Shown here: piece after piece, positions 28,992 to 42,282 of the stretch
How positions within the stretch are numbered: position 1 is the stretch's first letter
Layout: every line of letters starts with the position of its first letter
Assembly: GCA_943371245.1 (NCBI GenBank)
Contig: CALRTY020000007.1
Location: 46,977-110,976, forward strand
Length of the DNA: 64,000 bases
Direction: 5' to 3'
Source: Chitinophaga pinensis
Lineage (GTDB): Bacteria > Cyanobacteriota > Cyanobacteriia > PCC-6307 > Cyanobiaceae
Notes under the pieces: generated by a model
Told to the model about the DNA's origin: nothing
Databases searched by the model: none
The model's input: only the letters and a program-made list of their open reading frames with translations
Translations under genes and position numbers: made by a program

Positions 28992-29747
28992 ATGTCCCCC
29001 ACCTGGCCCACCGCCGCCACACCGCCAGCGCTGCCAGCGCCAGCAGACGGGCCAGCCAGGGCCCCGGCTTCCCCAGCAGCAGTTAGCAGCGCCGTGTGCC
29101 CCGACCCCGTTCCCAGCCTGCCCGTAGTGGAAACCTTCCATTCACTGCAGGGGGAGGGTGTCCATGCCGGGCGCAGTGCCTTCTTCATCCGGCTGGCGGG
29201 CTGCCAGGTGGGTTGCAGCTGGTGCGACACCAAGCACTCCTGGCCCCTGGCGGCCCATCCGCAGCGGCCCCTGGCCGAGCTGGTGGCGGAGGCGCAGGCC
29301 GCCGCCGCCGCCGGGGCGGCCTTCCTGGTGATCACCGGCGGCGAACCGCTGCACCACCAGCTCGATCCCATCTGCAACGCCCTGCGGCAGCTATCGGCAC
29401 CGGGCGGCAAAGCACTGCCCCTGCACCTGGAAACCAGCGGCGTGGATCCCCTCAGCGGCCACTTTGACTGGATTGCCCTATCGCCCAAGCGCCACCGGCC
29501 GCCCAGGCCAGAACTGCTGGCCGCCTGCCACGAACTGAAGCTGGTGGTGCACTGCGGCGACGACCTCAGCTTCGCGGCGGCCATGGCCGCCGCCGCCGCC
29601 CGCCGGGGGCGGGATCAGGGACCGGTGCTGCTGCTGCAGCCGGGGGCCGACTGCGCCGCCGGCCAGCAACTGGCGATCGACTACGTGAAGGCCAATCCAA
29701 ATTGGCGTCTCAGCCTGCAGAGCCACAAGCTGCTGGGCCTGCGCTGA
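28992..29747 (+). CDS. queE: 7-carboxy-7-deazaguanine synthase (radical SAM)
   Basis: LPVVETFHSLQGEGVHAGRSAFFIRLAGCQVGCSWCDTKHSW. Start uncertain (GTG 29094 possible). Confidence 0.85.
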   Translation: MSPTWPTAATPPALPAPADGPARAPASPAAVSSAVCPDPVPSLPVVETFHSLQGEGVHAGRSAFFIRLAGCQVGCSWCDTKHSWPLAAHPQRPLAELVAEAQAAAAAGAAFLVITGGEPLHHQLDPICNALRQLSAPGGKALPLHLETSGVDPLSGHFDWIALSPKRHRPPRPELLAACHELKLVVHCGDDLSFAAAMAAAAARRGRDQGPVLLLQPGADCAAGQQLAIDYVKANPNWRLSLQSHKLLGLR

Positions 29748-30125
29748 GCTGTATGGCCAGTTGATTAGCGAGGCTTAAGAAAATTTTAACCACGATCAAT
29801 TGGGCCCTGATGCCCGCGATGGTCTCATCAAAGGCTTTCAGGAAGGGCCCTCAGTTGGCAGCACCGCCGGGAGGACCGCCGGCAGGATCGCCGGCAGGGC
29901 CGTTTCCCATGGTTTGCTTAGCAGTTGCCTGGCGGCCAATAGCCCCAGGGCGCCAATTCACTTGAATAGCAACGCCCTAAGGCCCCGGGAGACCTTGGCG
30001 GACTTTTCCTATTGGATTGCCCCTAGGCAGGCCACTGGCAGCACAGATTGTGCCCACAGAAAGTCAATAAAGACAAAACCATCTAGGGCTTCAGTCCGCG
30101 CGACCAACCGCACCGCCGTCAATGA

Positions 30126-30347
30126 CTATAGATAAAGAACACCAATGCTAATAAGCGAGTTTCCAGTACTGCCAATTCCAACCACATTATCGCCAGAAGC
30201 GGTAGACTGATTGAAGTTTGTCAACCCTCCCAACACGCTGGCACCGCCAAGACCGCCGAAACCGCCAAGCAAGGAGCCAAGCGACGGCCTGGCGCCGCCA
30301 GATAGCGCTTCACAGTTCCGATCCGCAAGCAAGCTGATTTGAGACAC
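30126..30347 (-). CDS. small glycine-rich peptide, paralog 2, double-glycine-type leader (start inferred GTG 30347)
   Basis: (M)SQISLLADRNCEALSGG-ARPSLGSLLGGFGGLGGASVLGGLTNFNQSTASGDNVVGIGSTGNSLISIGVLYL. Its C-terminal half aligns to the peptide at 30542..30709. The track ORF 30126..30497 runs through a terminator, so it must be shorter. Confidence 0.4.
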   Translation of the reverse strand: MSQISLLADRNCEALSGGARPSLGSLLGGFGGLGGASVLGGLTNFNQSTASGDNVVGIGSTGNSLISIGVLYL

Positions 30348-30453
30348 AAAGAAAACCGGAAGAAGACCGGATGAATGTTGGCTCTGATTTTCTAGACACG
30401 GCTTGAGTGAACATCCAAAGGCGCAGCGAATATGCAACGTCCAGATAACAAGC

Positions 30454-30484
30454 AATAAAAAAGCCGCTTGATATTTCAAGCGGC
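30454..30484 (-). terminator. Rho-independent terminator after small peptide gene 1
   Basis: Stem GCCGCTTGA/TCAAGCGGC (30463-30484) with loop TATT, followed on the minus strand by TTTTTTATT. Confidence 0.65.
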
Positions 30485-30541
30485 ATACACGAGTCAACGA
30501 TCAATAACCTGACTTTGTCAGGCCATGACTGGACTTCAAAA

Positions 30542-30709
30542 TCAGAACAGTTTGATCACGCCGGTGCTAACAAGGCTCAGGTCGCCACCAATGCCAACAA
30601 CGTTGTCGCGGGTGCCAAACTGGTTGAAGGACAGAGTAGAACCACCACCGTTGAAAGATTCGGCGCTCTTGTCGGCGATTTCTTGGATAGCAGTGTTGTT
30701 TGAGGTCAT
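30542..30709 (-). CDS. small secreted-peptide candidate, paralog 1, double-glycine-type leader (55 aa, below the ORF-track cutoff)
   Basis: My own translation: MTSNNTAIQEIADKSAESFNGGGSTLSFNQFGTRDNVVGIGGDLSLVSTGVIKLF*. ATG start and TGA stop, with a terminator 58 nt downstream. Synonymous-only divergence from paralog 2 in the DNVVGIG block. Confidence 0.55.
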   Translation of the reverse strand: MTSNNTAIQEIADKSAESFNGGGSTLSFNQFGTRDNVVGIGGDLSLVSTGVIKLF

Positions 30710-31006
30710 GGTAACAAAGCGAAGTGTGGATCAGCGGGGACAAGCCCCTCACCTTGTTTAGATCCACAAGGAACCTTTGGGCCCCATTTCAGCTAATGCG
30801 CTGAGCTTCAACAGCCAAATGAATGAAAAACATTCGGCTAAACCGGTATGCGCCAAAACTATTGTTGGCTTCGCCCTCTTCCTGGCAGAAATTCCTGGCC
30901 AGCGGGCCAGGAAGAAAATCCAGGCCGACTGGCCGATCGAGGCCAGCAAGGCTCCAGACCCGCCTTCCCCAGCCAAAAATCCCAGCCCACCGGCCCCCGC
31001 TCCACT

Positions 31007-31531
31007 TCAGGGCAGCGCCAGGGCCGGCTGGCTGTTGGTCTCCGCCTTCCACAGCCTCCACCGCAGCTGCAGCGGTCTGGGGGCATCCAACACGATCGGG
31101 GTACTGACGTTGTAAGAAACCACGAACGGCTTGCCGGCCATGGGCACAAAGCGCTCCCGGGGCGGCATGCCGGGGCAGGCCATGCGGGTGGCCACCAGGG
31201 GCCCCACCTCGCTCACCCGATACAAAATCGGCCCCTGGCCTGCCGCCAGCGGCTCGGGCCTGAGCCTGGCGCTGAAGCTGTACTGGTTGCAATCCACCAG
31301 GGTGGTTTGGCCCACGATCAACTCCACGCGCCAGTCGCGGGGGTTGGCCGAGATGCTGCCATCGGCGCTGGGGCGCAGCAGCCCAGGCAATTGGATCACC
31401 CAGCGGCGATCGCCGGCGGCAGGCGCTGGATAGCCGCTCAAATCCAACCGCGGGATGGCCCTGGCCGCCGGTGCCGCCGCCAGGGCCAAGCCGGTGAACG
31501 CCAGGGCGATCAGTGGACGAAGCATGGGCAT
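31007..31531 (-). CDS. eco: ecotin (periplasmic serine-protease inhibitor)
   Basis: Signal peptide [81 protein letters not shown] parallel E. coli ecotin blocks. Confidence 0.85.
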
Positions 31532-35526: not shown

Positions 35527-36732
35527 ATGCCGCAAACACTGTTCAAGGTTGATCTCACCAAGCCGATGGATCAACAGGAAATGCCAGGTCACAACCGCTG
35601 GCACCCAGACATCCCGGCAGTGGTTTCCGTCAATCCAGGCGACGTGTTCAGGATCGAATGCAAAGACTGGACGGACGGCCAGATTAAAAACAACGACGAC
35701 CCCAAAGATATTGCCGATGTAAACCTAGAAGTGGTTCACGTTCTCAGTGGCCCCATATGGGTTAATGGCGCTGAACCCGGCGACATTCTTGTTGTCGACA
35801 TTCTCGATGTTGGAGCCCTTCAGGGTGATGAATGGGGCTTTACTGGCATCTTCGCCAAGGAGAATGGTGGTGGCTTCCTCACCGACCACTACCCCAATGC
35901 CGCCAAGGCGATTTGGGACTTTGAAGGCATCTATACCAGCTCCCGCCACATTCCCGGCGTGCGCTTTGCCGGCATCACCCACCCCGGTCTGATTGGCTGC
36001 GCCCCCTCCCACGAGCTGCTCAAGGAGTGGAATCGGCGCGAAACAGAGCTAGTGAATACCGCCCCAGACATCCGCACCTATGGCGCCGGCCTATCGGGCA
36101 GCGAACCGGTGCTGGCCGCCCTGCCCAACCCCAATAGCGCCATCCTCGGCACCCTGGCCAGCTCCGAGTTTGAGCGGGTTGCCAACGAGGCGGCCCGCAC
36201 CGTGCCACCGCGGGAGCACGGTGGTAACTGCGACATCAAAAATCTCACCAAGGGCACCAGGATTTACTTCCCAGTTTACGTAGAAGGTGGCAAGCTATCC
36301 ATGGGAGACATCCACTTCTCCCAAGGCGACGGCGAGATCTCCTTCTGCGGCGCCATCGAGATGTCTGGCTATCTCGATCTCCACGTGGATATCATCAAGG
36401 GTGGCGTAGCCAAGTACGGCATGGTTAACCCCATGTTCAAGACCAGCCCCGTGGAGCCACATTTTACCGATTACCTGGTATTCGAAGGCATCTCAGTTGA
36501 TGAATTCACCGGCAAGCAGCACTACATGGATGTGCACATTGCCTACCGTCGCGCCTGCTTGAATGCCATCGAATATCTCAAGAAGTTTGGCTACACCGGC
36601 GAACAGGCTTATCTGCTATTAAGCTGTGCTCCCGTGGAAGGTCGCATCAGCGGCATCGTGGACATCCCCAACGCCTGCGCCACCCTGGCCATTCCCACAT
36701 CGATCTTCAATCAAGACATCTTGCCCCGTTAA
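35527..36732 (+). CDS. fmdA: formamidase (acetamidase/formamidase family)
   Basis: MPQTLFKVDLTKPMDQQEMPGHNRWHPDIP...GGNCDIKNL...GDIHFSQGDGEISFCGAIEM. Confidence 0.9.
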   Translation: MPQTLFKVDLTKPMDQQEMPGHNRWHPDIPAVVSVNPGDVFRIECKDWTDGQIKNNDDPKDIADVNLEVVHVLSGPIWVNGAEPGDILVVDILDVGALQGDEWGFTGIFAKENGGGFLTDHYPNAAKAIWDFEGIYTSSRHIPGVRFAGITHPGLIGCAPSHELLKEWNRRETELVNTAPDIRTYGAGLSGSEPVLAALPNPNSAILGTLASSEFERVANEAARTVPPREHGGNCDIKNLTKGTRIYFPVYVEGGKLSMGDIHFSQGDGEISFCGAIEMSGYLDLHVDIIKGGVAKYGMVNPMFKTSPVEPHFTDYLVFEGISVDEFTGKQHYMDVHIAYRRACLNAIEYLKKFGYTGEQAYLLLSCAPVEGRISGIVDIPNACATLAIPTSIFNQDILPR

Positions 36733-36752
36733 GCGCCAGCCTCTAGCATCTC

Positions 36753-36781
36753 AAGGGAGGGGATATATCCCCCTCCCTTTT
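36753..36781 (+). terminator. Rho-independent terminator after fmdA
   Basis: AAGGGAGGGGATATATCCCCCTCCCTTTT, a GC-rich stem with one bulge followed by a T run. Confidence 0.6.
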
Positions 36782-37015
36782 CCCGCCTCGCAACTCGACT
36801 TTCGGCCACAAGTTCACAAGGCCTAGCCGAGGCACCCCAAGTACCCAAGTTCTAACCGAGCCATTATCTTAACCTTATCTCAATCTTGCTGCGAAAATTT
36901 TGAATATTCATCTAGGTTTAATTTCATTTTGTTAAAGGCGGCCATCGCTCAAGCCCCGGCCCCTTTCCCCCTTCCAGTTCTCCACCACCCCACCCAGAAA
37001 GCGCCCAATCTCACC

Positions 37016-37291
37016 ATGCCAGTCTATGAGTTCAGCTGCCCCCAGGGCTGCGATAATTATGAAGTTTGGCGCTCAATTGATGCCCGTGACTCTAACACTG
37101 AATGCCCTGATTGCGGGATTAAAGGCAACCGCGTATTCAGCCCACCGATGGCGCTCTGCGGGCCTCTGCGCTTAAAAACCGAAAGCAAAGATCCCACTAT
37201 TGTGCGCAAAGAAACGGGCAGCGAAAACAAGCCACGACTTAAAAATGCCCAAGGCGCCAGGCCATGGATGCTCAACCGTGGCTGTTGCTAA
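37016..37291 (+). CDS. fmdB: FmdB-family zinc-ribbon putative regulatory protein
   Basis: MPVYEFSCPQGCDNYEVW...TECPDCG (CxxC...CxxC zinc ribbon of the FmdB type) next to fmdA. Confidence 0.75.
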   Translation: MPVYEFSCPQGCDNYEVWRSIDARDSNTECPDCGIKGNRVFSPPMALCGPLRLKTESKDPTIVRKETGSENKPRLKNAQGARPWMLNRGCC

Positions 37292-38368
37292 TGCTCCTGG
37301 CGATTGAGCGAATGTGCATGTCGGCCTGGCATCTGGCCATCCAGCTTGATTACTGTTCAACTGCCGCTGGATTCGGGGCATTTTTATGACAATAACCAAG
37401 GAGGGAAACAGCTATAAATATAGATAGAGTGCACGAGCCAGGCGAGCAAAACGAGCCAACCAAGGCAGATGAGTCAGATGAAGTAGATCAGCCAGAGTAG
37501 GCAGATAAGCAAAGAAGGCAGATAAGCAAGATGAGCAATACGAGAAGAATTAGCGCCCCCTCGGAAGCCAGATATAGCTCACCACAATTCACGGGAAAAC
37601 GACGAAAGGTGTGCGTGCTATATCCAAAGCCGACATATTTATCGCGAGATGGCCTTAAATAGAAAAAACGCGCCGTGGAATCGCAGAAAGAAGCTTTGCA
37701 ATCCTTCCATCATAGATTTATTTATTTTGATTAGCAAGGCCCAGGCAGGTTAATATGAAGCAAGCTTTGATGAAGTTACCAATCGCAAGGGAGATGCTGG
37801 AAAACCATAGCCATTATCAATGGAGCACTAATCTGGCAATTTCCCTTAGCTAACATATGTCGCCTAATCGGAGGTTTTCCAGAGTCTCCTTAGCCTCCAT
37901 TCCTTGATTTCATTCCCCCAAACACCTGGCTTGCAGATCGGGGCTGTATGCGTTCCCCAAGGCGCTCCCCAGGCCCCGGTGGGTACTTCCACCGTCCCCT
38001 GGTAACCCCTAGGAAGCCGGAGGTCATATGCGGGAAGTGGGGACCTGGGAGAAGCTCGGGGCAAGGGAACTAGCCATGGCCTGTTCACAGGCAATAACAA
38101 GCCCACAGGCGACAACAAGGCTAAAGGCATTAACAAGGCTTCGGATCCTAAACTAGAGACAATAGGCGATTACCCTAGTTAGCCATACCACGACAAAGTG
38201 GCCGGAAAAAAGCGAGACGAATTTGCCTCACTATCGAAAACCTAACGCCATGATGATCTCAAGAATATTTCAACGGCTGGTGATTTGACTACCTGGGCAA
38301 CTGGGGACAAAATTTCACAAGCAGCACGAAAAGCGGCATATTATTATATGCATAATATTATATAGCTA

Positions 38369-39118
38369 TTAGACGGTAAGAAATTCCTTGACGACATCCT
38401 CGGAGAGGGAGGCCGTGGGACCGCTGGAAACGATGCTGCCTCGCTGCATAGCATAATAATAGCTGGATTGACGAACAAAATGCAGATGCTGTTCAACTAG
38501 AAGCACACTAATGCCGGTTTCTTTCATAATTCTCTGCACGGCACGCTCGATATCGAAGATAATTGAGGGTTGAATTCCCTCTGTTGGCTCATCAAGGAGC
38601 AATAACTTAGGCTTGCCTAGCATGGCACGGGCAATGGCTAATTGCTGCTGCTGACCACCGCTGAGATCTCCACCCTTGCGGCCCAGGAATTTCTCTAGAA
38701 TCGGAAATAGGTCAAATACGATTGGATCGATGTGGCGGTTCTTGGCCAGACCTCCGGGCAGTGCTTCCATGCCCAGCAGAAGATTCTCGCGGACAGTTAG
38801 CTGGGGGATGATATCCCGCCCCTGGGAAACATAGCCAATGCCATGGCGAGCACGCTGGTAGGGGGGCTCAGAGAGTAGCTCACGCCCCTGATAGCCCAGC
38901 GAACCAGACTTCTGCTGAAGCAGGCCAATAATGGTTTTTAGCAGGGTGGTTTTGCCGACGCCATTACGGCCAATCAAGCAAATCATCTCACCTTCATTAA
39001 TGGACAAGTCCACATTACGGAGAATATGGCTTTCTCCATAGTAAACATTAAGGCCTGAGACAGTGAGAATCTTTTTGTCTGTAGCCGGTGAAGTGGGGGC
39101 TGGCGCGGTGCTGAGCAT
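38369..39118 (-). CDS. urtE: urea ABC transporter ATP-binding protein UrtE
   Basis: Walker A GRNGVGKTT, signature LSGGQQQ, Walker B LLLLDEP. Last gene of the urt operon. Confidence 0.9.
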   Translation of the reverse strand: MLSTAPAPTSPATDKKILTVSGLNVYYGESHILRNVDLSINEGEMICLIGRNGVGKTTLLKTIIGLLQQKSGSLGYQGRELLSEPPYQRARHGIGYVSQGRDIIPQLTVRENLLLGMEALPGGLAKNRHIDPIVFDLFPILEKFLGRKGGDLSGGQQQQLAIARAMLGKPKLLLLDEPTEGIQPSIIFDIERAVQRIMKETGISVLLVEQHLHFVRQSSYYYAMQRGSIVSSGPTASLSEDVVKEFLTV

Positions 39119-39152
39119 GGCGGGGGAAGAGCAGAGGAACTAGAAGAAAGTT

Positions 39153-39899
39153 TCAGTCTTGAGATTGGCCGAGATAGACTTCAATAACCTTGGGATCCTT
39201 CTTGACATCATCAATCAGCCCTTCCGTGAGAACACTGCCCTGATGCAGCACCGTTACTGGCGCCTTGAGATCACGAATAAATTCCATATCGTGCTCGATT
39301 ACAACAACAGTATGCTTGCCAGCCAGTGATTTGATCAATTCGGCTGTGCGAACAGTCTCCTCATCGGTAAGACCAGCCACTGGTTCATCCAGCAGTAACA
39401 GCTGGGGAGACTGGGCCACCAGGGAGGCAATGGCCAACCATTGCTTCTGGCCATGGGATAGGGCTCCGGCCTTGGTCTTGGCGAAGGGGGCCAAACCCAC
39501 GTAATGGAGTAAGCGCTGCACCTCGTCGCGAATGCTGGCAGGTATCCGATCGCTAAGCAGACCCAGGGGATTTTTCAACGGGGAGGCTGCCAACTCCAGG
39601 TTGCGAATCACATCTAGATTTTCAAAAACCCGAGGGGTCTGGAATTTACGACCAATACCCCTACGGGATATCTTCTGTTCACTCAAACCAACCAAAGACT
39701 CTCCCTTGAAGAAAACACTACCTTTGGTCGGGCGAACCTTGCCGGTGATCACATCGAGGAAAGTGGTCTTGCCAGCCCCGTTGGGGCCGATAATTGACCG
39801 CAATTCGCCAGGCTGAAGGCAAATGGAAAGGTCGGTAAGCGCATAAAAGCCATCAAAGCTTACGCTCACATCATTAATCTGAAGCAGTGGGACCGACAT
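39153..39899 (-). CDS. urtD: urea ABC transporter ATP-binding protein UrtD
   Basis: GPNGAGKTT, LSHGQKQ, LLLLDEP. Operon position. Confidence 0.9.
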   Translation of the reverse strand: MSVPLLQINDVSVSFDGFYALTDLSICLQPGELRSIIGPNGAGKTTFLDVITGKVRPTKGSVFFKGESLVGLSEQKISRRGIGRKFQTPRVFENLDVIRNLELAASPLKNPLGLLSDRIPASIRDEVQRLLHYVGLAPFAKTKAGALSHGQKQWLAIASLVAQSPQLLLLDEPVAGLTDEETVRTAELIKSLAGKHTVVVIEHDMEFIRDLKAPVTVLHQGSVLTEGLIDDVKKDPKVIEVYLGQSQD

Positions 39900-39939
39900 T
39901 AAAATGCCTCGCGGTGGGTAATCATGAGTGAGTCAAAAA

Positions 39940-41070
39940 TCACTTGTTTGCCACGGACTCTGCTTCTTCGAGCACGTTTGGATTTGTGTCTATAGAGGGA
40001 TAGGTGGCCGTTGTTGGTGCCTTGCCAAAGGCAGCCAGCATCGAGGCAAAGCCACCGCCTTTGAACCAGCCATAGATGCCATCAGGCATCAGCACAACCA
40101 CGAAGATGAACAGGGCACCCTGCACAAATAGCCACATCTCCGGAAGGGCTTCACTCACAAGGCTGCGCAGATAATTAACAACTACCGCACCAATAATAGG
40201 GCCAACCAGAGTGCCTCGACCGCCCACTGCCACCCAGATCACCATCTCAATAGACATGGAGATGCTCATGTACTGGGGCGAAACGATGCCCGACTGCACT
40301 GTATAGAGGGCGCCTGAGATGCCGCAAAGGGCGCCTGCCACAACAAATACAATGGTCTTAAATGGCACAGGATTGTAACCAGTGAAGCGGAAGCGTTGCT
40401 CGTCGTCACGAATGGCGATAAGTGCGTCGCCAAAGCGCCCAGTGGTAAGTCGCTTGCAAATAATAAATGCTACGGGCAGCAGTAGCACGGTGATGCGATA
40501 AAGCCAGAGTTGGGCCTCTGGCGAGCCCAAAAGCATTCCGAACACCTCTGTAGTGCTGGTCTTTAGGCCATTGGTGCCATTGATGAGCTTTTGCTGGCCA
40601 TTAAAGAAGTGATAAAAAACCATCAGCGCCGCCTGGGTGATGATGGAGAAATAAACCCCTTTAATTCGATTTCTAAAAATAAGGTATCCAACCAGGCCAG
40701 CGATTACCGCTGGAATCACCCAGATCGCGATCAGGGTGAAAGTGGGTGACCAGAATGGCTGCCAGAAGAACGGCAGTTTTTCCACACCATAGTTCTCAAA
40801 GAACTTGGGGATGCCATTGCCACCAGCTTCGCTCTTGGTGTTGAGCATCAAATACATAGCCGCGCCGTAGCCCCCCAAGGCAAAAAAGATGCCTTGACCC
40901 AGGCTGAGCAAGCCCGTATAGCCCCAAATCAAGTCAATTGCCAGGGCGGTAATGGCAAGAGCGAAGTAGCGGCCAAATAGATTAAGCCGGAAATTTTCAA
41001 GGACTGCCGGCAGGATGAACAGGGCAACCGCCAGCAAAATCCACGGAAGAAGGCGTTTGAAAAGTTTCAA
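39940..41070 (-). CDS. urtC: urea ABC transporter permease UrtC
   Basis: Branched-chain-type permease with multiple TM helices. Operon position. Confidence 0.9.
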   Translation of the reverse strand: MKLFKRLLPWILLAVALFILPAVLENFRLNLFGRYFALAITALAIDLIWGYTGLLSLGQGIFFALGGYGAAMYLMLNTKSEAGGNGIPKFFENYGVEKLPFFWQPFWSPTFTLIAIWVIPAVIAGLVGYLIFRNRIKGVYFSIITQAALMVFYHFFNGQQKLINGTNGLKTSTTEVFGMLLGSPEAQLWLYRITVLLLPVAFIICKRLTTGRFGDALIAIRDDEQRFRFTGYNPVPFKTIVFVVAGALCGISGALYTVQSGIVSPQYMSISMSIEMVIWVAVGGRGTLVGPIIGAVVVNYLRSLVSEALPEMWLFVQGALFIFVVVLMPDGIYGWFKGGGFASMLAAFGKAPTTATYPSIDTNPNVLEEAESVANK

Positions 41071-41124
41071 GGCTGATGCCTCAATGTGGATGGGCTTGCA
41101 AGGTGCGGAAAGAAGGCCGCGGAA

Positions 41125-42282
41125 TTAAGATTCAACAGATCTACCCTTTAGAGGGAACATGCCGTTGGGACGGAACTGAAGGAAGGCGATAATGAATATA
41201 AACACCAGCACCAAAGACATGCTAGTAGTTGCAAAGAATTCGATCACGGCCTTGGGGGCAGCAGGCAGATTCGGGAACATGATCAAAACTGAGCCGGAGC
41301 CAATCACCGATTGAATGATCCCCAGCAGCAGTGATGCCAACACAGTGCCCAGCAAATTGCCTACGCCACCTAAAACAATCACCATGAAGCAGGAGACGAT
41401 ATAGGCAGCGCCCAGGTTTGGGCCCACGGATCCCAGCAGGGTGATCGCACAGCCAGCCACCCCCGCCAGGCCAGAACCAATGCCAAAGGTGATGCTGTCC
41501 ACCCGGTCGGTGGGAATGCCCAGGCAATTACTCATCTGCCTGTTCTGGGTAACGGCCCGCATGCGCAGCCCCCAGACGCTCTTGGTGAGGAACCAGACCG
41601 TGGCCAGCAACAGCACCGCAGACAGCAGGATGATGAAGATGCGGATACCCGGAAGCTCAATCCCATCGATCTTGCCCCAGCTACCCTGCAGCCACTTGGG
41701 GGCGGTAACATCAATGTTTCGAGGTCCAAACCAAGCCGACGACAATGGGCGAACTGCCGATAAGATGTTGGCAGCTGCCAGGCCAACCCCAATAGACACC
41801 AGCCAGCCCAAACCAGTGACATAGGGCAAGAAAGGCTTTTCAGCCCAGGTTTTGCCGATTACCTTTGAGGCAAAGATTCCTAGGCCAATGGCCATCAGTA
41901 TACCCAGTACCATGGCGGTAGATACACTGCGCACTAACTGGATCAGAATTAAACTGACCCCCCAGGTAGCCAACAATGTTTCCAGGGGTCTTCCGTATAA
42001 CCGCCTGATCAAAGTGCGTTCGAGCAATACCCCCACCAGTGCTGTCACAAAAAATGACAGCACCAAGGCCACCGGGAAATAAAGCTCAAAGACAATGCCG
42101 CCCATGGGCTTGAAAACATTTTGGACCACGAAGGTCACATAGGCGCCAAGCATCATTAGCTCGCCGTGGGCGAGGTTAATGACACCCATCAAACCGAAAA
42201 CAATGGCGAGACCGGTTGCAGCAAGCAGCAGCACTGAACCGATACTCAGACCATCAAGAACCTGAGAAAAAAAGAGTTCCAC
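41125..42282 (-). CDS. urtB: urea ABC transporter permease UrtB
   Basis: LivH-like permease (VINLAHGELMMLGAY). Operon position. Confidence 0.9.
   Translation of the reverse strand: MELFFSQVLDGLSIGSVLLLAATGLAIVFGLMGVINLAHGELMMLGAYVTFVVQNVFKPMGGIVFELYFPVALVLSFFVTALVGVLLERTLIRRLYGRPLETLLATWGVSLILIQLVRSVSTAMVLGILMAIGLGIFASKVIGKTWAEKPFLPYVTGLGWLVSIGVGLAAANILSAVRPLSSAWFGPRNIDVTAPKWLQGSWGKIDGIELPGIRIFIILLSAVLLLATVWFLTKSVWGLRMRAVTQNRQMSNCLGIPTDRVDSITFGIGSGLAGVAGCAITLLGSVGPNLGAAYIVSCFMVIVLGGVGNLLGTVLASLLLGIIQSVIGSGSVLIMFPNLPAAPKAVIEFFATTSMSLVLVFIFIIAFLQFRPNGMFPLKGRSVES

Follow-up and report, generated by a model that had tools for sequence, protein, structure and literature searches.

What do the two small open reading frames (ORFs) between the ecotin gene and queE encode? 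The window analysed here, the whole 64-kb stretch (64,000 nucleotides, nt) of contig CALRTY020000007.1, holds a lower-GC islet between these genes. An interpretation made from the letters alone (hereafter the sequence-only reading) had described in it a pair of secreted peptides, possibly a two-peptide bacteriocin. We consider it somewhat better than an even chance that the two frames, ORF-A and ORF-B, are independently transcribed precursors of exported peptides with double-glycine (GG) leaders, processed by a C39/HlyB-type ATP-binding cassette (ABC) exporter encoded elsewhere. The argument rests on the following features (aa, amino acids):

29748..31006 (−), lower-GC islet from the ecotin stop to the queE stop, 1,259 nt (1.26 kb)
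30542..30709 (−), ORF-A, 55-aa precursor gene, ATG start, end coordinate including the stop
30644..30709 (−), ORF-A leader, residues 1-22, MTSNNTAIQEIADKSAESFNGG, ending in GG
30545..30643 (−), ORF-A core, residues 23-55, GSTLSFNQFGTRDNVVGIGGDLSLVSTGVIKLF, fast-evolving predicted mature peptide
30126..30347 (−), ORF-B, 73-aa precursor gene, GTG start, end coordinate including the stop
30294..30347 (−), ORF-B leader, residues 1-18, MSQISLLADRNCEALSGG, ending in GG
30219..30293 (−), ORF-B Gly-rich linker, residues 19-43, ARPSLGSLLGGFGGLGGASVLGGLT
30129..30218 (−), ORF-B conserved C-terminal module, residues 44-73, NFNQSTASGDNVVGIGSTGNSLISIGVLYL

Coding evidence and paralogy of ORF-A and ORF-B

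The sequence-only reading had placed a 55-aa frame on the minus strand from 30709 to 30542, and both its coordinates and its quoted translation were correct. Its second frame (30347 to 30126) matched the 73-aa GTG form of ORF-B. We found the islet at ~86-100% nt identity in 18 syntenic loci, and the gene order queC-ecotin-A-B-queE-pyrG was the same in every readable contig. About 12 distinct syntenic relatives (overall ~86% nt identity) entered the alignment of the islet. Variable alignment columns were counted per codon position, with a binomial p, and ratios of nonsynonymous to synonymous substitution rates (dN/dS) were obtained by the Nei-Gojobori method. The ORF-A orthologs fall into six 90%-identity protein clusters with 78-100% aa identity, all syntenic and all metagenomic; the ORF-B orthologs form five 90%-identity clusters that are 84-96% identical.

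Variable columns in the ORF-B core numbered 4, 4 and 18 at codon positions 1, 2 and 3 (p=2e-4), and those in the ORF-A leader 1, 1 and 6 (p=0.02). The counts in the ORF-A core were 9, 10 and 11 (p=0.42), and the non-coding spacers of the islet varied about equally over the three positions. Residues 44-73 of ORF-B gave dN/dS of 0-0.05 at dS 0.2-0.67, values that mark ORF-B as a gene under strict purifying selection. For the ORF-B linker, the five comparisons having synonymous changes gave 0.26-1.05. The ORF-A leader also evolves under purifying selection by this measure: dN/dS was 0.05-0.26 in six of seven comparisons, the exception (window against L016) reaching 0.79 from only four substitutions, and 19 of the 22 residues are invariant over all six clusters. 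In the ORF-A core the ratio rose to 0.6-3.1, from small counts, yet frame and stop codon are intact there and some residues form an invariant scaffold.

Reading frames and stops of both ORFs are kept across the 18 loci, and the indels are in frame; the ORF-A frame, for example, survives a 3-nt indel (KLF/KF). The in-frame deletions of 3 aa and 6 aa in the ORF-B linker of two orthologs (P0010 and P0011) are explained by a tandem repeat there:

30243..30269, 9-nt (LGG) tandem repeat in the ORF-B linker (Tandem Repeats Finder: period 9, 3 copies)

Slippage in a 9-nt repeat keeps the frame automatically, so these linker indels count for little as coding evidence. Because codon-position bias, dN/dS and frame-keeping among the relatives agree, we consider both ORFs to be translated genes. 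The selection on a translated peptide that the sequence-only reading had proposed from the two paralogs is thus borne out in the homologous loci, which keep both frames and show purifying values in the ORF-B C-terminus and the ORF-A leader.

That reading had also aligned the C-terminal halves of the two peptides. By BLASTP, ORF-A and ORF-B align end to end (E=3e-5, 34% identity), so that the alignment covers the leader too. The N-termini share I-x2-[IL]-A-D-[KR]-x2-E-x-[FL]-x-G-G, and the C-terminal modules align as FNQ...DNVVGIG...SL[IV]S.GV. Directly after GG, ORF-B has 21 Gly-rich residues inserted relative to ORF-A. The motif DNVVGIG occurs exactly twice in the window and in none of 100 shuffles. 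Its codons (GAC AAC GTT GTT GGC ATT GGT in one copy, GAT AAT GTG GTT GGA ATT GGC in the other) differ at 5 of 7 positions, all synonymously, as had been noted before. On this evidence, ORF-A and ORF-B are paralogs over leader and core.

In both precursors a short hydrophilic leader, closed by Gly-Gly, precedes an uncharged core in which Gly, Ser and hydrophobic residues are frequent (leader/core 22/33 aa in A, 18/55 aa in B). The leaders are probably helical. Cleavage after GG would leave a 33-aa core of ORF-A beginning GSTLSF... (GSTLSFNQFGTR) and a 55-aa core of ORF-B beginning ARPSLG... (ARPSLGSLLGG...). Alternating hydrophobic/polar stretches and segments rich in Gly, Asn, Gln and Ser (S-x-L-x-F-x-Q-x-G, G-N-S-L) run through the cores; we take these stretches, as a lead and not as a test, to resemble curli repeats. 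The description of both peptides as rich in GxxxG-like glycine patterns applied to the ORF-B linker (GSLLG, GGFGG, GGLGG) and failed for the ORF-A core, which has no GxxxG.

Two further features stand out at the nucleotide level:

30453..30484 (−), intrinsic terminator 3' of ORF-A, GCCGCTTGAAATATCAAGCGGC followed by a T-run
30311..30377 (−), most conserved block of the islet: CCGG-TCTTCTT-CCGG hairpin, U-run, GTG start and first 12 codons of ORF-B

The terminator hairpin (30484..30463, minus strand) lies 58 nt past the ORF-A stop and has a 9-bp stem with six G-C pairs, a 4-nt loop and a T-run. Its stem is conserved in all relatives, in keeping with the clean terminator already recognised in the sequence-only reading. 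The ORF-B frame is open over 30126..30497 (−), and the 73-aa form begins at the GTG at 30347. We rejected the longer form of 111-123 aa (TTG or ATG start) given by some gene callers on three grounds: a stop in L007 and L018 closes it and leaves the GTG as the earliest usable start, the added upstream part lacks codon periodicity, and it runs across the ORF-A terminator.

The conserved block at the start of ORF-B contains two invariant runs of 26 and 38 nt. Only 3 columns vary over the 90 nt from 30376 to 30287, against a typical 5-10 per 30 nt elsewhere in the islet. Synonymous sites are frozen here, yet in the later part of ORF-B dS reaches 0.2-0.67, a contrast that suggests an additional constraint on the nucleotide sequence, e.g. 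translation control or a binding site. The RNA fold of the upstream block was not significant (z=+1.3).

The proposed double-glycine leader

The GG pair stands at residues 21-22 of ORF-A and 17-18 of ORF-B, within the ~15-30 residues usual for this cleavage motif, and is invariant in all orthologs. Hydrophobic residues at -4/-7/-12/-15 (F, A, I, I in A; L, C, L, I in B), which had been read off the sequence before and which we confirmed, would lie on one face of a helix and follow the spacing rule established for C39-peptidase substrates, with a weak fit at -7, where the residue is small (Ala or Cys). To place this pattern, we applied the rule to every start-to-stop small ORF of 30-130 aa in the window (1,998 in all); the combination of GG and the -4/-7/-12/-15 spacing was found in three, two of them ORF-A and ORF-B. 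Leaders with shuffled residues fitted the rule in 0.01% (A) and 0.3% (B) of trials. The N-termini, read from the sequence, are acidic and hydrophilic and thus unlike Sec-type signal peptides.

A conserved leader followed by a variable core is the standard pattern in leader-guided peptides (PMC3140520), and ORF-A shows it. In ORF-B, the large insertion sits at the predicted GG cleavage site. Secretion of the ORF-A and ORF-B products is plausible.

Distribution, export and rival readings

A profile of ORF-A and ORF-B run against 1.84 billion representative proteins matched only its own lineage and two low-complexity proteins. Among the genomes of 185,579 species, the family was present in two Lake Mendota 'Prochlorococcaceae' metagenome-assembled genomes only; a DNA scan of metagenomes added one locus, and the genome and metagenome scans together gave three, all of the same lineage. 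Searches of Pfam, NCBIfam, PADLOC and PDB sequences with the peptides or the profile returned nothing except a chance BamA match (E=1), and Rfam searches of the islet at gathering thresholds and at E<=1 nothing relevant. Viral and phage collections held no matches to the family and no repeats were found flanking the islet ends, so that an origin from a phage or mobile element has no support. By these searches, ORF-A and ORF-B belong to an orphan family confined to one narrow lineage of freshwater Cyanobium-like picocyanobacteria. The family is new, narrowly distributed and mostly unannotated; small proteins with GG leaders as such are already known in cyanobacteria.

Using ecotin as an anchor, we reached four more distant Cyanobium loci. 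Their ecotin-queE spacers measure 362 nt (L019), 102 nt (L020), 14 nt (L021) and 4 nt (L022), and none of the four has islet homology. As judged from these spacers, the islet was inserted between the two genes in this lineage only, which upholds the earlier proposal of an insertion beside genes of the queuosine pathway. Two of these loci, sister Cyanobium-like metagenome contigs, carry an export cluster:

L019:7558-12496 and L020:7421-12260, between queE and pyrG: SurA-like peptidyl-prolyl isomerase (PPIase), 986-aa ABC protein and HlyD

The ABC protein has an N-terminal cyclic nucleotide monophosphate (cNMP)-binding domain and HlyB-type architecture (TIGR01846, 711 bits), and there is no adjacent precursor gene. 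The cluster is the 'group I' bacteriocin export cluster (SurA-like PPIase, long-type cNMP-binding/C39/ABC protein, HlyD) of Wang et al. 2011. It stands beside queE in both sister loci and is missing from the window, where the pyrG-queE spacer is only 12 nt. Wang et al. 2011 list at least one C39-ABC/HlyD/SurA cluster of group I for each picocyanobacterial genome of their Table 1, and group I clusters average only 0.35 adjacent precursors (PMC3140520). An exporter encoded elsewhere in this genome is thus likely a priori. Since group I clusters usually lack an adjacent precursor, the unlinked A and B are candidate cargo, by a link that is purely inferential.

Several observations weigh against export through a GG leader. 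No exporter, adaptor or immunity gene was found in the window, as the sequence-only reading had also stated: there is no ORF of more than 640 aa, the large ORFs are housekeeping genes, and tblastn with HlyB-type ABC, SurA-like and HlyD proteins picked up nothing beyond the similarity general to ABC ATPases. Outside A and B, the ~380 nt left in the islet contain no further ORF with a coding signature and hence no candidate immunity gene. The ABC protein of the sister locus L019 had no match to Pfam Peptidase_C39 at E<=0.01, and its C39 domain may be degenerate (C39-like). Neither peptide matched Pfam or NCBIfam at E<=10, including the models for GG leaders, NHLP, Nif11 and bacteriocins. The refined leader consensus M(R/K)ELx3E(I/L)x2(I/V)xG(G/A) (Dirix 2004, quoted in PMC3140520) is matched only in part: ORF-A has the fitting E-I at -13/-12, S-A at -8/-7 and F in place of I/V at -4, and ORF-B has L-L at -13/-12 and N-C at -8/-7. 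Both leaders carry Glu at -6 and none at the consensus position -8. The ORF-B leader is nearly invariant in nucleotide sequence (1 variable column in 54), and the changes seen are all nonsynonymous (Q3K, A8V, R10Q, E13A, A14S), so its extreme conservation may stem from a constraint that is not on the protein alone. An AlphaFold2 model of ORF-B from a shallow alignment placed residues 3-16 in a helix at low confidence (predicted local distance difference test, pLDDT, 47.7); we gave it no weight and judged the score too low for a fold search. The earlier leader assignment has the rare spacing in its favour, and lacks a match to curated models and a full match to the strict consensus. The sequence-only interpretation as a whole is partly supported: coding, paralogy, leader spacing and lineage-specific insertion held up, no curated leader model backs it, and its two-peptide bacteriocin idea is weakened.

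The architecture of A and B resembles that of known systems to different degrees. Substrates of the PCAT/AMS family (PCAT, peptidase-containing ABC transporter), which include class II bacteriocins, microcins and cyanobacterial precursors (PMC3140520), are likewise small precursors with a short leader ending in GG. The likeness extends to size (55 or 73 aa), the distance of GG from the start (18-22 residues), the hydrophobic residues at -4/-7/-12/-15, a conserved leader with a variable core, and a Gly/Ser-rich core; precursor genes of that family can also be distant from the exporter gene and frequently escape annotation. A and B differ from them in having no homology to NHLP, Nif11, HetP, DUF37 or bacteriocin_sig models, in carrying Glu at -6 (in A also at -13) instead of -8, and in lacking a linked exporter, modification enzyme or immunity gene in the window. 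Class IIa/IIb microcins of Enterobacteriaceae (colicin V, MccH47, MccE492; PMC10233263) share a leader of 15-20 aa ending in GG or GA and an uncharged or anionic, Gly/Ser-rich hydrophobic core of 30-90 aa. Their genes, however, lie in compact clusters with immunity, PCAT and membrane fusion protein genes, none of which is near A and B; the hosts belong to another phylum, and there is no homology.

Another parallel is provided by Synechococcus elongatus PCC 7942, in which the small GG-motif proteins EbfG1-4 are secreted via the C39-ABC protein PteB and enable biofilm formation; EbfG1-3 form amyloids (PMC4997328, PMC9981879). Like A and B, these are paralogous small cyanobacterial GG-motif proteins without homologs outside their own lineage, and by this likeness A and B could equally well have a non-antibiotic role, with mature parts that may self-assemble. 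The four ebfG genes form one operon beside pteB, whereas A and B are two separate units with no exporter nearby. No similarity between EbfG and A/B was detected, and the likeness is functional and architectural only.

We weighed the export of two separate GG-leader peptides against other explanations of the same data. The sequence-only reading had suggested a two-peptide bacteriocin or microcin of the class IIb kind, with A and B cleaved, co-exported and acting as a joint antibacterial pore-former. GG-type leaders on both peptides, GxxxG motifs in the ORF-B linker and the fast-evolving ORF-A core agree with this, as do small, uncharged, Gly-rich hydrophobic cores without Cys, like those of class II microcins in composition. 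The proposal is weakened by the strong conserved terminator between A and B, which speaks against one operon (read-through is possible), by the confinement to B of GxxxG, which would be expected in both peptides, and by the very different selection on the two genes. A and B are, moreover, paralogs rather than complementary partners, with no immunity gene among the islet ORFs and no exporter within the window, and we regard such a pair as distinctly improbable. Structural peptides of the EbfG type would need no immunity gene: after PteB-like export, beta-prone cores would self-assemble in amyloid-like form on the surface or in the matrix and promote aggregation, not killing. The S. elongatus precedent (PMC4997328, PMC9981879), the alternating hydrophobic/polar and Gly/Asn/Gln/Ser-rich core stretches and the strong purifying selection on ORF-B are consistent with such a role. 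Against it stand the lack of homology outside the lineage in the search of representative proteins, the missing neighbouring exporter, the lack of a common operon for A and B, and a host that is a planktonic lake picocyanobacterium; we consider it unlikely.

The products might also stay in the cell, as uncleaved cytoplasmic or membrane-associated small proteins in which GG is incidental and the N-terminus a structural helix. The missing exporter, the lack of a match to any leader-family hidden Markov model, the departure from the strict consensus and an ORF-B leader conserved in nucleotides and not clearly in protein could all be read in this way. Such proteins would not be expected to share, in both paralogs, a -4/-7/-12/-15 plus GG pattern that is rare by chance, nor to show a large insertion exactly at the predicted cleavage site of ORF-B. 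The conserved leader and variable core of ORF-A are typical of leader-guided peptides, and the cores are too short and too Gly-rich for a transmembrane helix. Retention in the cell is quite unlikely in our estimation. The reading that both frames arose by chance within a conserved region that is non-coding or acts as regulatory RNA has next to no probability. The whole islet, including its non-ORF parts, is ~86% conserved among relatives and the ORF-B start is conserved at the nucleotide level, but third-position bias with dN/dS of 0-0.05, synonymous divergence between the paralogs, and the lack of an Rfam match or a significant fold argue otherwise; on codon-level statistics, a purely non-coding reading is effectively refuted.

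For the favoured reading, export of two separately transcribed GG-leader peptides, we propose the following course. An ABC exporter of the PCAT or HlyB-like kind, encoded elsewhere in the genome and working with an HlyD adaptor, would recognise each leader through its C39-type peptidase domain. The exporter would cut after GG and release the core outside the cell (33 aa from A, 55 aa from B). The released cores might act as microcin-like membrane-active peptides or as self-assembling surface or matrix peptides; signalling is a further candidate function. The core composition and the fast-evolving A core favour a microcin-like function, and the missing immunity gene disfavours it. The rapid change of the A core, set against its invariant leader, suggests a variable partner for A; this could be a receptor, a competitor or a signalling system of the pherotype kind. 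A more specific proposal, in which A and B are cargo of the near-universal picocyanobacterial group I long-type (cNMP-binding/C39-like/ABC) exporter with HlyD and SurA, the invariant leader with its hypervariable A core marks a strain-specific (pherotype- or bacteriocin-like) interaction system of lake picocyanobacteria, and the queE neighbourhood, site of the exporter cluster in sister lineages, is a remnant of that linkage, seems to us rather unlikely.

Peptides with GG leaders are common in cyanobacteria and almost none has a known function, while the widespread group I exporters mostly have no known substrates. The ORF-A/ORF-B pair offers a clean test case backed by comparative sequence, with one fast and one constrained core, in an abundant lineage of lake picocyanobacteria. 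As ORF-B is missed or overlong in gene calls, surveys of called proteins will overlook such peptides. The pair would gain in interest were the peptides shown to be cargo of a substrate-orphan group I exporter or mediators of strain-specific interactions; short of demonstrated export and activity, its practical value is modest.

Other elements, neighbours and annotation of the islet

The islet holds further small elements outside the two genes:

30726..30767 (−), inverted repeat GTGGATC...GATCCAC with an inner GGGG/CCCC hairpin, conserved, 17 nt upstream of the ORF-A ATG
29851..29910 (−), ORF-C, tiny Gly/Pro-rich ATG ORF, MGNGPAGDPAGGPPGGAAN, kept in all relatives
29857-29902, 12-nt tandem repeat under ORF-C, 3.8 copies, with 24 nt more in some relatives

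The inverted repeat upstream of ORF-A may be a protein-binding site (operator) or an element of the 5' untranslated region. The RNA fold of this 5' region was not significant (z=-1.6), and the substitutions of L011, L015 and L016 within the repeat break pairs, none of them compensating.

ORF-C (MGNGPAGDPAGG...) was considered as a third peptide or an immunity gene and rejected, as it lies in a copy-variable 12-nt tandem repeat and its changes fall mostly at second codon positions; it is probably a by-product of the repeat rather than a gene. Just downstream of the queE stop, an 8-nt unit GCATCAGK at ~29808-29816 (−) occurs in 1 to 4 copies among relatives (L006, L007-L013, L016), and some relatives have a 23-nt insertion beside the stop. 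This queE-side end of the islet is a minor hot spot of variable repeat number.

The GC content of the islet is 0.48-0.58 over 29750..30950 against 0.69-0.73 in the flanking genes, so the sequence-only reading was right to call it an AT-richer islet between queE and ecotin/queC. The whole window is a GC mosaic (60.7% overall) with many stretches at 51-55%, and the low GC of the islet is by itself unremarkable. A stretch of ~51% GC extends over 5 kb (36201-41420) from after a formamidase gene into a region of urea/branched-chain-type ABC transporter genes, and other stretches of 1-2 kb at 51-55% adjoin genes of 70% GC.

The neighbourhood of the islet comprises ecotin, queC, pabB, queE, pyrG, a ferritin-family (Dps-like) gene and aspS. 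The nearest genes are:

31007..31531 (−), ecotin (Pfam PF03974, E=3.5e-29)
28992..29747 (+), queE, radical S-adenosylmethionine (SAM) protein, best matches to QueE models
directly past ecotin, queC

Gene calls for QueE range in length from 216 to 269 aa among near-identical loci (window 28992-29747 (+) versus L001, L003, L007 and L017). The spread comes from alternative upstream starts and, in some relatives, an indel-rich low-complexity segment of Ala, Gln, Arg and Ser near the C-terminus.

Gene callers either miss ORF-B or lengthen it by 38-50 codons upstream through the ORF-A terminator (30126-30497; P0007-P0011). They also report a 98-aa ORF without codon periodicity antisense to the 3' end of ecotin (L001:9595-9891). 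Both kinds of call are artefacts of annotating small genes in a genome of high GC.

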